Shown: positions 4,357-46,861 of the stretch, one piece after another
Position numbering within the stretch: position 1 is the first letter of the stretch
Layout: each line of letters opens with the position of its first letter
NCBI GenBank assembly: GCA_965228975.1
Contig: OZ245851.1
Coordinates: forward strand, 53,940 to 117,939
From: Alphaproteobacteria bacterium
Lineage (GTDB): Bacteria > Pseudomonadota > Alphaproteobacteria > UBA8366
DNA length: 64,000 bases
Direction of reading: 5' to 3'
Notes under the pieces: model-generated
What the model saw: only the letters and a program-made list of their open reading frames with translations
The model's database searches: none
What the model was told of the DNA's origin: nothing
Program-made: the position numbers and the translations under genes

Positions 4357-5373
4357 ATGAAATCCGTCATTTTCGGCGCAACCGTCTTGATAACGGCCCT
4401 GGCGAGCGCCGCGGAAGCGCGCGACCATCTGCACATCGTCAGCTCGCCCGGCGACTTCGTCTACACGTCGAAGGTCGCGGAGAGTTTTTCCCGCGAGTAT
4501 CGCCAGCCTGTACCGGTCGTCCGGAGCACCGGATCGCGAACGACGGTTCGAACATTCTGCGCCGGTATCGGCGTCGACCATCCCGACATCGTCAGCCTGC
4601 CGCGGCCCATGCAGCCCGCGGAGATCGACGAATGCCAGCGGAACGGGGTCAAGCGCATCACGCAGATCAAGGTCGGCTACGAAGCCGTCGTCCTCGCCCG
4701 CCAGCGCGGTGCGTTTCGCTTCGATGTGAACAAGGTGCATCTCTTCAAGGCCCTCGCCAAGGAAGTGCCCGTCCATGGTCGCATCGTGCCGAACCCGTAT
4801 AGGAAATGGAGCGAAATCGATCCGTTCCTGCCGCCGATCCCCATTCGCGTCATCGGCCCGCGAGACGGGACGGAAATCCGCCGGGCGTTCCTGAAGCTGG
4901 TCATGGACGAGGCTTGCCGGACCATGCCGGCGTTGACGGCCCTCGATGCGCCGCGCCGCGACAGGATTTGCACCACCTTTCGCAACGACGGCGCGTTTCG
5001 GGCGGTGTCGCGCGGCTATCAGGAAACCGTGCGGCTATTGGAGCGCGACTCCTCGCGGATCGCGATCATGCCGTTTTCCGTGTATCGGGAATGGGATGAA
5101 TCGCTGACGACCGTGCAGGTCGACAGCGTCCCGCCCAACCCGGTGACGGTTGCACAGAGCGAATATCCGATCATTTGCCCGGTTTTCCTCTACGTGAAGA
5201 CGCAGCATTTCAATCGGGTGCCGGGATTGTTGGAATTCGTCGTGGAATATACCAGCGATCACGCTTGGGGCCCGGACGGGTACCTGATCGAGGACGGTCT
5301 GATCCCGATGACCGAGCGGGATCGCCGGTGGCAGCGCGCCAACGCGATCGGCTTCACGCCGATGCGGCGTTAG
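4357..5373 (+). CDS. PstS-like (PBP type 2) periplasmic substrate-binding protein, orphan
   Basis: Signal peptide MKSVIFGATVLITALASAAEA. The overall pattern matches phosphate-binding-protein-like SBPs. No cognate permease or ATPase is adjacent. Confidence 0.65.
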   Translation: MKSVIFGATVLITALASAAEARDHLHIVSSPGDFVYTSKVAESFSREYRQPVPVVRSTGSRTTVRTFCAGIGVDHPDIVSLPRPMQPAEIDECQRNGVKRITQIKVGYEAVVLARQRGAFRFDVNKVHLFKALAKEVPVHGRIVPNPYRKWSEIDPFLPPIPIRVIGPRDGTEIRRAFLKLVMDEACRTMPALTALDAPRRDRICTTFRNDGAFRAVSRGYQETVRLLERDSSRIAIMPFSVYREWDESLTTVQVDSVPPNPVTVAQSEYPIICPVFLYVKTQHFNRVPGLLEFVVEYTSDHAWGPDGYLIEDGLIPMTERDRRWQRANAIGFTPMRR

Positions 5374-5444
5374 GGCGCGATTGTCTTGCGGCAGAAACGA
5401 CAGAGCCGGAATCCCGGGACGTGCCTGGGAATTCCGACTCTCCG

Positions 5445-6584
5445 TTAAACCTCCTTTCGGTCGCGCGGCTTGATCCGCACGAGGTCGTCGAGCACGCCGT
5501 CCATGCCGTTGCCGACAATGACGTTCCCGACCTTTTCGGACACCTTCTCAAGCGCCTCCAACTCCTTCAGCCGCAGGAGGATCGGGTTGTCCTCCATCAG
5601 CTTCGCGGTGTTCAGGAGGGATCGCGTCGCCGCCGTCTCCTCCCGGCGCTTGATCACGTTCGCCTGCGCGGTCTTTTCCGCCTCGATGACGCGGTTCATC
5701 AGTTCCCGCACGTCGCCGGGCAGGACGATGTCCTTGACCCCGGTCGCGGTTACCACAAGACCGTTCGCCTCGAGCTGCGGCACCAACCGCTCGGCGATCG
5801 CCGCGTTGATCCCCTGCTTGTCGCCCAGCACCTCTTCGAGGGTCCGGGTTCCGACCACCTGACGCAGAGCGAATTGAAGCTCCTTGTACAGGTAGTCCCG
5901 CAGGTCGGCCGTGACGGTCACCGCCGCCATCGGGTCGGCGATGCGGTAGACCGCGGTCACGTTGGCGCGGACGCCGATGCGGTCCTTGGTCAGCACGTCC
6001 TGACCCGTGACCTCGAGGGTCTGCAGACGCAGGTCGAGGGTCACCGCATCGACACGCTTGGCCGCCCGGATGAAGGCGTAGCGCCCCGGCGTCATCTGCC
6101 GGTCGAGCACGCCGTCCACGTACAACAGGGCGACATGTCCGGTCGGCACGTCGACGACCTGGATCAGGTCGGCGGCGTTGAGCCGGGCCAGCGGCGCCAC
6201 GAGCGCCTGCGGCAGATCGATCTCCGCCTCGACGTCCAGGGACCGGATCTCGATCTCCTGCAGCGTCTTGGCGTAGAACGCCCGCTTCCCCGGGCCAACC
6301 ACGTCGACCAGCTTGCCGCCGGCGAACACGAGGCCGAGCGCGTTGTCGGCCATGTCGGCGACGGCGAAGTGCTCGTCCACGACCTCCGGCCGCGTCAGGT
6401 ACAACGCGTCCAGTGCCGCGTCGCGGACCGGCATCTGCCGCAGGTCCAGCTTGCGAACCTCCGTGCGGCCGGACATCTGCCGCATCCGGCGGTAGGTTCC
6501 GGGTCCCAGAACCTTCTGGAAGACCCGGTCGCGGTACAGGAGCCCCAGCTCCGTCTCCGCGATCATATCCGTACGAAAAACCAT
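5445..6584 (-). CDS. SPFH/band-7 (slipin-like) domain protein
   Basis: 379 aa. Band-7 core (VLTKDRIGVRANVTAVYRI...) followed by a coiled region (IEAEKTAQANVIKRREETAA). AAGGAG RBS before the ATG. Confidence 0.85.
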   Translation of the reverse strand: MVFRTDMIAETELGLLYRDRVFQKVLGPGTYRRMRQMSGRTEVRKLDLRQMPVRDAALDALYLTRPEVVDEHFAVADMADNALGLVFAGGKLVDVVGPGKRAFYAKTLQEIEIRSLDVEAEIDLPQALVAPLARLNAADLIQVVDVPTGHVALLYVDGVLDRQMTPGRYAFIRAAKRVDAVTLDLRLQTLEVTGQDVLTKDRIGVRANVTAVYRIADPMAAVTVTADLRDYLYKELQFALRQVVGTRTLEEVLGDKQGINAAIAERLVPQLEANGLVVTATGVKDIVLPGDVRELMNRVIEAEKTAQANVIKRREETAATRSLLNTAKLMEDNPILLRLKELEALEKVSEKVGNVIVGNGMDGVLDDLVRIKPRDRKEV

Positions 6585-6941
6585 CGGTCTTCTCCTTTAC
6601 TTCTTTCGCACTCGGTGGAACGGAAAAGTTCCTAATGAATGAATAATCGAGGCAACCGGACGGAAACCGGCGGTCGGCCGTGGACCGTACGATCGCGGGG
6701 CCGTCTTCCGGCGGCGCGCGGGCGGGGGTTCCGGCCAAACCTGAAACCCGATGGGTCTCAGGCCGGTCCGGCGTGCCCGCCCGCGGTCCGCAGGGATCGG
6801 GACGCGCGAGCAGCGCGGTTCGAGGCGGCGTCGTGCCTGGCCTCGGCGCGGCGGGACAAACGTCCCGCCGATCCGAAACCTGGCTTCCGTCCGGCACCCC
6901 AGAAATCAATTTGGCTATAGATTCTGCTTTAAAGGCAGTTT

Positions 6942-7014
6942 CTGGATGGGAGGAATCGAACCTCCGACAGCTGAATCCTAAGTTCAGTGCTCTATCCAAC
7001 TGAGCTACATCATG
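6942..7014 (-). tRNA. tRNA-like gene with a class-I body and anticodon UAG; acceptor stem imperfect, so possibly a pseudo-tRNA
   Basis: Hand fold: D arm GCTC-AGTTGGATA-GAGC. Anticodon arm CTGAA-CTTAGGA-TTCAG. 5-nt variable loop CTGTC. T arm GGAGG-TTCGATT-CCTCC. Acceptor CATGATG/CATCCAG has 2 mismatches, no CCA is encoded, and the 5' end overlaps the CCA of the upstream tRNA. Confidence 0.45.
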
Positions 7015-7087
7015 GAGCCGATGACGGGACTCGAACCCGCGTCCTGCGGATTATGATCCGCTGCTCTACCAGCTGAGCTACATCGGC
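7013..7087 (-). tRNA. tRNA-Met-like gene (anticodon CAU) with encoded CCA; the anticodon loop appears 1 nt short
   Basis: Hand fold: acceptor GCCGATG/CATCGGC. D arm GCTC-AGCTGGTA-GAGC. Anticodon arm GCGGA-TCATAA-TCCGC. Variable loop AGGAC. T arm GCGGG-TTCGAGT-CCCGT. Ends TCCA. Total 75 nt. Confidence 0.6.
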
Positions 7088-7491
7088 GGGCTATCCGTCG
7101 TCGCGACACACGCGGGGCGCATTACGGGCGCCGGGCGCGCCGGCCGGGCATATGGAACCCGGACCATAGGACGCGGATGATCCTGCTAAAGGACCTAACG
7201 AATAACGCCTGACAGCCTAAACTCTGGGTGCCGGCTTTCGCCTATGTGGAAAAGTTAATCATTTGTCTTGCCCTTTTCTGTGTTTGCGCGTCGAGGAGGG
7301 CAAGACGCGTCTGGCAACGGCGCGTCAGGCCCTTGATCGGCCTCGTAAATTTGGTCTGAGTTCGTTCACGGATGGACTGGCCATCATGACTTCCTTACCT
7401 GATCTTCGTTACCAAGACGTTGCCCGAAGGCGAATGGAGGGCGCTTTTACGGTGATCCACGGTTGTAGGCAACCCCAATTCGATAGAGCGG

Positions 7492-7533
7492 ATAAAAAAG
7501 AAAAAACCGGTCGCGGCGGGCGCCGGACCGGTT
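7492..7533 (-). terminator. rho-independent terminator of the crotonase gene (potentially bidirectional)
   Basis: Stem AACCGGTC...GACCGGTT with an inner CGGC/GCCG pairing. On the minus strand it is followed by TTTTTTCTTTTTTATC. It lies about 35 nt after the TAA at 7571-7573. Confidence 0.8.
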
Positions 7534-7570
7534 CGTTTCTTGCCGGAATTCGGCCTGCCGGGTCAGTTCA

Positions 7571-8344
7571 TTACCGGCCCTTGCGTTTGATGAAATCGGG
7601 GAAGGCGTCCTCGGCCTTGGCGCCCGGCAGGACGTGCTTGGCGTAGTCCTTCTCCAAGGTCCATTGGTCGATCAGGCTGCGGCCCTTCTGTTGCAGCAAC
7701 AGGGACTTCACGCCCATGACCGATTTGCGGTCGTTGCCGGCGATCTGTTTCGCCAATTCCATGGTCTTGTCGCGCAGCTCGGCGCTCGGCACCAGATGGT
7801 TCAGCAGGCCGATGCGGTAGGCTTCCTCGGCCTTGACCACGCGGGCGCTGAACAGCAGTTCCTTGGCCATCGGCCAGCCGACCTGGTTCGGCAGGGTCCA
7901 GGTGCTGTTGATTCGGCCGTAGGCGGCGGCCAGGAAGCGGAATTCGGTGCGCTCGCAGCCGATCCGCATGTCGACCGACGACGCCAGAACCGCGCCGCCG
8001 CCATAGGCGAGCCCGTTCATCATGCCGATGGTCGGCTTCAGACAGGCGCTGACCTCGTAGCCGCTGAGCGTGCGCACGGCCGCGCTGCGGTCGAGCTTGC
8101 CTTCGGCTTCCAGCCGGTCGTTCTCACGCTGCTCGTGGATGTCGCCGCCGGCGGTGAAGGCGCGCTCGCCGGAGCCGGTGATGACGATGCAGCCGACCTC
8201 GTCGTCCTCTTCCGCGCGCAGCACCGCCGTCTGCAGTTCGGCGGTGAGCTTGTTGTTCATCGCATTCAGGACTTTCGGGCGATTCAGCGTCACGATTGCC
8301 ACGCCGTCCTCTTTTTCCACCAGGATATGCTCGTAGTCGCTCAT
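7571..8344 (-). CDS. enoyl-CoA hydratase/isomerase (crotonase) family protein
   Basis: 257 aa with crotonase hallmarks: VAIVTLNRPKVLNAM, FTAGGDI, GLAYGGG. Confidence 0.9.
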   Translation of the reverse strand: MSDYEHILVEKEDGVAIVTLNRPKVLNAMNNKLTAELQTAVLRAEEDDEVGCIVITGSGERAFTAGGDIHEQRENDRLEAEGKLDRSAAVRTLSGYEVSACLKPTIGMMNGLAYGGGAVLASSVDMRIGCERTEFRFLAAAYGRINSTWTLPNQVGWPMAKELLFSARVVKAEEAYRIGLLNHLVPSAELRDKTMELAKQIAGNDRKSVMGVKSLLLQQKGRSLIDQWTLEKDYAKHVLPGAKAEDAFPDFIKRKGR

Positions 8345-46684: not shown

Positions 46685-46699
46685 CTCCCAACGGACGCT

Positions 46700-46760
46700 C
46701 CGACCTTTTAGCTGGGTTGTTTTCCGTGGCCGCAAGCCGGTCGGGCCAAATCACCACGTC
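46700..46760 (-). promoter_or_regulatory. structured metZ leader; candidate SAM-II-like riboswitch aptamer
   Basis: The minus strand reads CGUGG-UGAUUUGGCCCGACCGGCUUGCGG-CCACG-GAAAACAACCCAGCUAAAAGG. It has a P1 stem plus GAUUU, GCUU and AGCUAAAA elements reminiscent of SAM-II, but I could not confirm the pseudoknot pairing by hand. Confidence 0.35.
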
Positions 46761-46861
46761 CCGGGACTTTGGGCGGATGGCGGGAAAATGTCAACAGAAT
46801 CTTCCATCGGCGGCCAAGCCGGGTAAACTCGCTGGCATGGCGGCAGTTCGAGGAGGATGTG

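Follow-up and report, generated by a model that had tools for sequence, protein, structure and literature searches.

What are two tandem, overlapping genes that resemble tRNAs, and that both deviate from the canonical cloverleaf, doing directly upstream of a gene of the cage-forming SPFH/Band-7 protein family? The question is raised by a 64-kb stretch of DNA (hereafter the window) from an alphaproteobacterium of the UBA8366 lineage (GenBank assembly GCA_965228975.1, contig OZ245851.1, positions 53,940 to 117,939), which carries on its minus strand the upstream gene tRNA-A (7013-7087), the downstream gene tRNA-B (6941-7014) and, 356 nt after the end of tRNA-B and on the same strand, the start codon of a slipin-family SPFH/Band-7 gene. 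An initial annotation, made from the letters of the sequence, had described the tRNA-like pair and proposed decaying tRNA genes at an old integration hot spot, a recoding or regulatory tRNA-like RNA, or single-base assembly errors; the downstream SPFH/Band-7 gene, which it did not mention, is the decisive context. The best explanation as a whole, to which we give a probability of about 80%, is that the two genes encode non-decoding tRNA mimics, placed directly upstream of the slipin-family gene and tied to a tRNA-damage response.

Anatomy and evolution of the tRNA-like pair

The pair was examined with ARAGORN and with Infernal and the Rfam tRNA model in the window, in which these are the only two tRNA-like genes, a number below the criterion for an accessory array (about 10 or more tRNA genes). 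For tRNA-A, ARAGORN returns the call "tRNA-???" with a two-nucleotide anticodon "at", equivalent to an anticodon loop of 6 nt, and the Rfam tRNA model gives 63.2 bits at 7016-7087 with a one-base deletion within the anticodon loop; the 7-bp acceptor stem is intact, the discriminator base is U, and CCA is encoded. The anticodon arm reads GCGGA-UCAUAA-UCCGC, and the covariation of anticodon-stem pair 31-39 across the family described below (GC 26, AU 25, UA 8, CG 5) favours a 5-bp stem with the 6-nt loop UCAUAA over the alternative fold with 4 bp and 8 nt. tRNA-B is called tRNA-Leu(UAG) by ARAGORN and scores 56.3 bits with the Rfam model; it is a class I molecule with the 7-nt anticodon loop CUUAGGA and a 5-nt variable loop in place of the long variable arm expected of bacterial tRNA-Leu, it lacks CCA, and its acceptor stem has non-standard pairs (mismatches) at 2-71 and 3-70. 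The calls share 2 nt, as tRNA-B begins within the CCA of tRNA-A. Held against the features of a canonical decoder, tRNA-A has the paired acceptor stem and the CCA and lacks the 7-nt loop, and tRNA-B has the 7-nt loop and lacks the other two. The initial annotation had folded both genes by hand, and its coordinates, strand and anatomy, including the 6-nt loop and encoded CCA of tRNA-A and the UAG anticodon, class I form, two acceptor mismatches, missing CCA and overlapping start of tRNA-B, are confirmed by ARAGORN, Infernal and the sequence; the two programs, which it had named as a check, do not fold tRNA-A as a normal tRNA with a 7-nt loop.

A genome-wide pattern scan for the exact 6-nt-loop anticodon arm returned 3 irrelevant matches, of which two are chance occurrences and the third is a truncated piece of a tRNA in a metagenome-assembled genome of Aerophobetes; the exact tRNA-A arm is thus lineage-specific. 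The fragment (L002, 5088-5135, minus strand, Candidatus Aerophobetes) is a truncated 5' tRNA half with the same GGAUCAUAAUCC 6-nt-loop arm; it heads a Val-Asp-Phe-Thr tRNA cluster and is probably an unrelated remnant.

The arrangement of the pair is shared widely. Homologues of the slipin at 65-82% identity occur in Kiloniellales, Pelagibius and Rhodospirillaceae; the closest ones bear the name "Kiloniellales bacterium", which together with a SAM-alpha riboswitch in the window points to a Kiloniellales-like alphaproteobacterium as its source. The slipin alignment (A3) was used to fetch 80 metagenomic loci with 39-97% protein identity. Among the 64 loci with at least 620 nt of upstream flank, which form the denominator of the census, 63 carry a tRNA-like element upstream of the slipin gene on the same strand, at a distance of 250-990 nt (mostly 330-450 nt) from its start. 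ARAGORN finds one or two such genes in nearly all loci with enough flank, and the "anticodons" that it assigns vary widely, with many two- or four-nucleotide calls. A family covariance model (R1), built from 71 elements (alignment A4), scores tRNA-A at 81.6 bits and tRNA-B at 74.0 bits in the window, and it recovered a second copy wherever ARAGORN had missed one; no third copy was found in the conserved region upstream of tRNA-A, as the model gives only two window matches at E values up to 1. The tandem pair is the rule in the alphaproteobacterial-type clade, and a single element is found in a more distant clade with slipins of about 40% identity. Individual loci depart from this layout: three tandem copies are present in L034 (1171-1386), an A-type copy with a 4-nt loop in L036 (1064-1209), and pairs with 5-nt loops, 550-990 nt from the slipin gene, in L073 and L077.

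Across the family the cloverleaf is strongly maintained. On alignment A4, 94.9% of the cells are paired, against 39-49% with slid partners, and the covariation score is 0.632, against 0.19 in shuffles. Both sides have changed in 15 of the 21 pairs, and each of the five anticodon-stem and seven acceptor pairs shows compensatory changes; as in tRNA-B, the outer acceptor pairs are frequently disrupted, 26 of 67 sequences leaving pair 1-72 open. The D and T arms hardly vary from one "anticodon" to another, so that the elements make up one RNA family and not a set of isoacceptors. All four stems, and the D and T loops that form the elbow, are under strong purifying selection, and the anticodon loop is the sole part that is free, or driven, to change.

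The loop varies in both length and sequence. It has 7 nt in 62 of 84 distinct elements, 6 nt in 12, 8 nt in 5, 5 nt in 4 and 4 nt in 1, so that 22 (26%) differ from 7 nt; most of the aberrant loops belong to A-type copies, most of which encode CCA or CC, and B-type copies keep the 7-nt loop. In phylogenetically independent close pairs, loop divergence amounts to 64-65% of sites, compared with 14% in the rest of the RNA (p about 1e-14). Close relatives that carry the pair (L004, L005 and L008) show the same pattern at short range: in an alignment of the window with L004 and L005, both flanks of the pair are near-invariant (about 160 nt on the upstream side of tRNA-A, about 350 nt on the downstream side of tRNA-B), and the differences are concentrated in the anticodon loops. 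The tRNA-A loop is UCAUAA in the window, L004 and L008 and the 5-nt UCACU in L005; the tRNA-B loop is CUUAGGA in the window, CUUUUAA in L004 and UUUAGGA in L005, so that the window and L005 share the anticodon UAG, whereas L004 has UUU; L008 has AUU. In L004 the change of the tRNA-B loop is accompanied by a compensatory A-U to G-C change in the anticodon stem. When the window, L004, L005 and L008 are compared, the four-fold-degenerate sites of the slipin gene show only 7-10% divergence, and a further close pair, L009 and L010, differs there by 7%; the B loops of the first four differ at 1-5 of 7 positions, and the loops of L009 and L010 at 3 of 8 and 4 of 7 positions. By a parsimony count the four B loops would need at least 6 substitutions at 7 sites, against about 1 expected at the four-fold rate (Poisson p about 0.002). 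The loops are thus more than unconstrained: their rate of change exceeds that of silent sites, a sign of diversifying selection, of hypermutation or of patchy recombination.

The slipin partner and the b7a-tRNA class

The gene downstream of the pair (5445-6584, minus strand; Pfam Band_7, 9.1e-28) encodes a slipin-family SPFH/Band-7 protein of 379 aa. Its AlphaFold2 model (predicted local distance difference test score, pLDDT, 79) starts with beta-repeats (about residues 1-145), continues with the SPFH domain and ends in a long helix; within residues 1-175 an SPFH-type beta segment occurs three times (LGLLY...GPG, LGLVF...GPG and VALLY...PG), in a miniature of the Major Vault Protein architecture, and no obvious hydrophobic membrane anchor was seen in the sequence by eye. 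Sequence matches in the PDB are PH stomatin (5e-22), human stomatin and QmcA, and among the NCBIfam models HflK is the only match, far under threshold. The best Foldseek matches of the model are proteins that assemble into rings or cages (stomatin, HflK/C, prohibitin, erlin and QmcA); the longest alignments, of 410-468 columns, are those with Major Vault Protein (query TM-score, TMq, 0.32-0.38), because that protein also has beta-repeats before an SPFH-like shoulder.

A class of tRNA-like RNAs with such a neighbour has been described computationally before. The b7a-tRNA is presented, in the part of Wang et al. (2018, bioRxiv 10.1101/312249) that concerns it and that draws on Burroughs & Aravind (2016, NAR 44:8525), as a non-coding RNA (ncRNA) that bears a strong resemblance to a tRNA and lies next to a Band-7 protein and RtcB; the same part considers that it may be functionally redundant with YrlA (bioRxiv 10.1101/312249). 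On sequence and gene order, the window pair is assignable to this class, as a minimal, stand-alone alphaproteobacterial member: both genes resemble tRNAs (by the Rfam scores of 63.2 and 56.3 bits, by ARAGORN and by the family cloverleaf), they adjoin a Band-7/SPFH gene on the same strand here as in the 63 census loci, and the Band-7 protein belongs to a family found in rtc/RNA-repair loci. A neighbouring gene for RtcB or for another RNA ligase or repair protein is part of the published context, although the class name does not imply it and only a minority of the loci have one; tblastn found no RtcA, RtcB, RtcR or nucleotidyltransferase gene in the window. Rfam holds no family for b7a-tRNAs, so annotators call them odd tRNAs or "tRNA-???", as happened here. 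The tandem A/B pair and the structured leader of about 350 nt that follows it may also set the window apart from the published b7a-tRNA, as may the splitting of features between the two copies, tRNA-A combining the CCA with an aberrant loop and tRNA-B a 7-nt loop with a weakened acceptor stem.

The tie to RNA repair comes from homologous loci. Of about 80 such loci, only 4 (L058, L076, L079 and L087) have RtcB as a neighbour, and the slipins of two of these, L079 and L087, are 41-42% identical to that of the window. The window protein is also 39-41% identical, over at least 95% of its length, to the slipins of Citrobacter and E. coli (the latter at the locus L088, CP061233.1), and a tblastn search of plasmid records with it returned enterobacterial homologues of about 41% identity; blastn matches to plasmids were rejected as generic tRNA similarity. 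In Citrobacter the slipin gene forms an operon with a nucleotidyltransferase gene, divergent from rtcR, the activator of the RtcB RNA-repair operon. The 450-nt gap at the Citrobacter freundii locus (L089, 5535-5982, NZ_CP151862.1) contains a sigma-54-like TGGCAC-N5-TGGCA site and, by eye, only a T-arm-like hairpin (UGGG-UUCGAUU-CCCA) in a possible acceptor/T minihelix.

Loci of the clade of about 40% identity have further neighbours. An HNH endonuclease gene lies upstream of the module in 10 of them, and in nine (L044, L046, L048, L049, L052, L053, L070, L071 and L078) the module stands at the 3' end of an array of 6-18 tRNA genes. These array genes, in the upstream 0.1-2.5 kb of each locus, are often of unusual length (for example a 70-nt Trp and a 78-nt Leu), and most score 30-57 bits with R1, compared with 55-86 bits for the slipin-proximal elements. 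The combination of tRNA arrays and an HNH endonuclease echoes the TrcR regulon of Anabaena, a translational-stress regulon that co-induces a slipin, a silent trn tRNA array, RtcB and an HNH endonuclease (PMC10272220); in Pseudomonas aeruginosa, PaFlo8 sits inside an rtc locus (PMC13086221). The trn operon under TrcR consists of non-housekeeping, often non-canonical tRNA genes (PMC10272220), whereas the window holds two slipin-proximal mimics and no array.

Other systems are comparable in part. YrlA and Y RNA, with the protein Rsr (Ro60) and the rsr-yrlBA-rtcBA operons, share with the module a tRNA-mimicking ncRNA, a scaffold protein and RtcR/RtcB contexts; YrlA, however, is a permuted tRNA-like module on a Ro-binding stem, whereas the window RNAs are complete cloverleaves, and the YrlA/Y RNA model RF02553 scores 38.3 bits on the window, against a gathering score of 69, in a match that spans only the T arm of tRNA-A, the junction and the D arm of tRNA-B. 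The eukaryotic vault likewise combines structured ncRNAs of small size with a cage-type protein that has beta-repeats at its N-terminus, a shoulder of SPFH type and a long helix; at 379 aa and about 3 repeats, the slipin is a far smaller protein and has no known TEP1/TROVE or PARP partner. The likeness is a structural and architectural analogy and not membership. As to selection on the loop, changes in the anticodon loop reportedly let phage tRNAs escape the anticodon nucleases of the host (van den Berg et al. 2023, as cited in PMC11090510). The mimics would share with them anticodon-loop selection through tRNA-targeting nucleases, but the module is absent from the phage records and viral contigs searched, and its loops are often incompatible with decoding. 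The phage molecules are reportedly functional decoders carried by phages.

Proposed role and rival explanations

We infer that the tRNA mimic most likely serves as an RNA cofactor, decoy or bait of an SPFH cage in a tRNA-damage response. The tRNA pair, the structured leader and the SPFH gene would form one transcription unit, and the processed tRNA-like RNAs would be bound by, or enclosed in, a soluble SPFH ring or cage, whose protein is predicted to combine a stomatin-like core with N-terminal beta-repeats like those of Major Vault Protein. The resulting ribonucleoprotein would act when anticodon nucleases or other ribotoxins attack cellular tRNAs; it could be a decoy that competes with these, a bait that signals through its own damage or a tRNA-repair scaffold, and the fast, often non-canonical loops would be the expected product of an arms race with anticodon-loop-specific nucleases. 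Such a role would parallel the suggestion that YrlA's tRNA-like domain is a competitive inhibitor of an anticodon nuclease (PMC7790460).

A more specific form of this proposal is put forward tentatively, and we hold it to be a good deal less probable than its opposite: that the loop is under diversifying selection as a ribotoxin decoy or bait, and that the mimics, a leader of about 300 nt and a soluble vault-like SPFH cage make up a tRNA-guarding ribonucleoprotein, a prokaryotic counterpart of the vault and of Ro-Y RNA. If it were true, the interface of the arms race could be read directly from the loop sequences, and if the decoy or bait idea holds, these sequences would report which tRNAs are attacked in a lineage. 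The b7a-tRNAs were predicted in 2016, and validation of them was not found in the searchable literature; the module of the window is minimal, as it comprises two RNAs, one leader and a single protein, and the congeners that lack it are natural knock-outs, which makes it a clean setting in which to study how an SPFH cage deals with a tRNA mimic. The comparison contributes a fast-evolving anticodon loop, a specialised alphaproteobacterial A/B tandem and a large structured RNA between the mimics and the gene; the tandem, the faster-than-silent loops, the leader and the partner's resemblance to the vault protein in architecture are only possibly new.

Several points weigh against the proposal that the pair are non-decoding mimics tied to tRNA damage. 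Searches by tblastn with RtcA, RtcB and RtcR of E. coli and with RtcR and the nucleotidyltransferase of Citrobacter gave no match in the 64-kb window, so the link to RNA repair comes by homology of the module and not from local context, and no PADLOC defence-system model matches the slipin. ARAGORN, Rfam and R1 detected no complete tRNA-like gene at the slipin loci of E. coli and Citrobacter, so that the protein has no strict need of the RNA. The definition of the b7a-tRNA used here is second-hand, through Wang et al. (2018), and according to the part of that preprint on these RNAs they are without experimental validation (bioRxiv 10.1101/312249). As for the loops, strict neutrality does not hold for the four-fold sites of a GC-rich genome, and rapid loop change could likewise stem from recombination or gene conversion.

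Of the other explanations, the one that survives best, although we consider it improbable, is that the pair are tRNA-shaped processing or stability signals only, that is, that excision by RNase P and RNase Z would make the 5' end of the slipin mRNA, the released RNAs would be functionless and the loop unconstrained. The common strand, the fixed distance, the lack of a terminator-like site before the slipin gene and the embedding of the pair in a long conserved non-coding region all agree with it. RNase P and RNase Z, however, need mainly the acceptor/T minihelix, whereas in this family the D arm and the anticodon stem are also strictly kept, with compensatory changes; the weakened acceptor stem of tRNA-B would be poor design for such a signal, and the loops change faster than four-fold sites and not at a neutral rate.

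It is quite unlikely that the two genes are functional decoders of a small accessory set, for example a class I Leu(UAG) tRNA together with a frameshifting or recoding tRNA with a 6-nt loop. The high tRNA model scores, the intact acceptor stem and CCA of tRNA-A, and the large tRNA arrays that adjoin related loci, which can function under translational stress (PMC10272220), speak for decoding; the anticodon of tRNA-B, on the other hand, switches between UAG, UUU and AUU among near-identical genomes, 26% of the family have loops of 4, 5, 6 or 8 nt, one D/T-arm sequence serves all members regardless of anticodon, and tRNA-B combines two acceptor mismatches with the lack of CCA and of a long variable arm. 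The pair is moreover wholly absent from the congeners L006 and L007. In the suggestion of a "recoding or regulatory tRNA-like RNA" the regulatory, tRNA-like direction was right, as non-decoding mimics, and the recoding role is unlikely, as the anticodon differs among genomes with 7-10% four-fold divergence in the adjacent gene and two congeners do without the block.

Decaying tRNA pseudogenes at an old integration hot spot, or sequencing or assembly errors, would suit a block that is variably present between congeners and deviations that are single-base in size, but these two suggestions of the initial annotation are effectively refuted by the comparative data, namely strong covariation and near-invariant D and T arms, an element that 63 of 64 loci retain even where protein identity falls to 39%, aberrant loops that recur, identical or similar, in assemblies made independently, and a block with no integrase and no flanking repeats; we regard either as highly implausible.

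Leader, upstream region and accessory block

The interval between tRNA-B and the slipin start codon (6585-6940, minus strand) is a conserved, apparently structured non-coding leader, delimited with RNAalifold, pair counts and nhmmer. Its main element is a long-range helix of 17 pairs, in which 6882-6900 pairs with 6649-6668 and which encloses about 270 nt, among them an invariant GGGCACGCCGG at 6768-6778; a hairpin at 6617-6632 lies close to the ribosome-binding site. The helix is 91.9% paired, against 32-58% when slid, with a covariation of 0.328 against 0.06-0.14, the structure having been derived from the same alignment. By nhmmer the leader profile is found at 30 loci, in the clade of 64-100% identity, and the clade of about 40% identity has an analogous long-range helix of different sequence. 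The leader has no match in Rfam, and no conserved small open reading frame was found in it when one was sought by analogy with alr0739. A scan found no terminator-like site between the tRNA-like genes and the slipin gene, so a single transcript of the pair, the leader and the slipin is plausible.

A tRNA-shaped RNA beside a large structured leader could also recall a T-box, in which slipin expression would be governed by pairing of the variable anticodon loop with a leader "specifier" that co-varies with it. Such cis-regulation is scarcely credible here: in a test of complementarity that counted contiguous Watson-Crick matches only, the longest loop-leader complement was 4.63 nt for cognate and 4.63 nt for non-cognate combinations of tRNA-A and 4.11 nt against 4.21 nt for tRNA-B, the 200 nt upstream behave similarly, and no T-box match to Rfam was found in the window.

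On the other side of the pair, a conserved non-coding region (7088-7330, minus strand; alignments A1 and A7) lies upstream of tRNA-A, and across the clade 170-240 nt of it are conserved and rich in hairpins. It contains the hairpins CCGGG-UUCCAUAUG-CCCGG, with compensatory variants, and GGCGC-CCGUAAU-GCGCC, and an inverted repeat GUCUUGCCC...GGGCAAGAC. The region presumably holds a promoter, or a regulatory or structured RNA. No sigma-70 consensus promoter and no Rfam match were found in it, and a GGCAC present there lacks, by eye, the spacing of a sigma-54 site.

Upstream region, tRNA-A, tRNA-B, leader and slipin gene together form a variably present block of about 2.2 kb (5379-7556), delimited by comparison with L004-L008 and lying between an enoyl-CoA hydratase gene (7571-8344, minus strand) and a convergent PBP_like_2 gene, which comes after the SPFH/Band-7 gene; these flanking genes are ordinary chromosomal genes. 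The hydratase of the window gave no exact match on record, and four congeners (L004-L007) were found through hydratase homologues of 92-96% identity. The block is carried by the window, L004, L005 and L008, with the same layout and tandem pair in L004 and L005. In L006 and L007, whose hydratases are 92-93% identical, the hydratase gene abuts the PBP_like_2 gene directly (site 4775-4815), and the block and its tRNA-like genes are absent. No integrase, clear flanking repeats or target-site duplication was seen around the block, and a phage or plasmid origin received no support from the searches, which gave no phage match and no viral contig for the module. The tRNA pair thus belongs to an accessory, stand-alone module of about 2.2 kb in this genome. 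Elsewhere in the window, at 46688-46767 on the minus strand, a SAM-alpha riboswitch (RF00521, 58.6 bits) provides a useful marker of Alphaproteobacteria.

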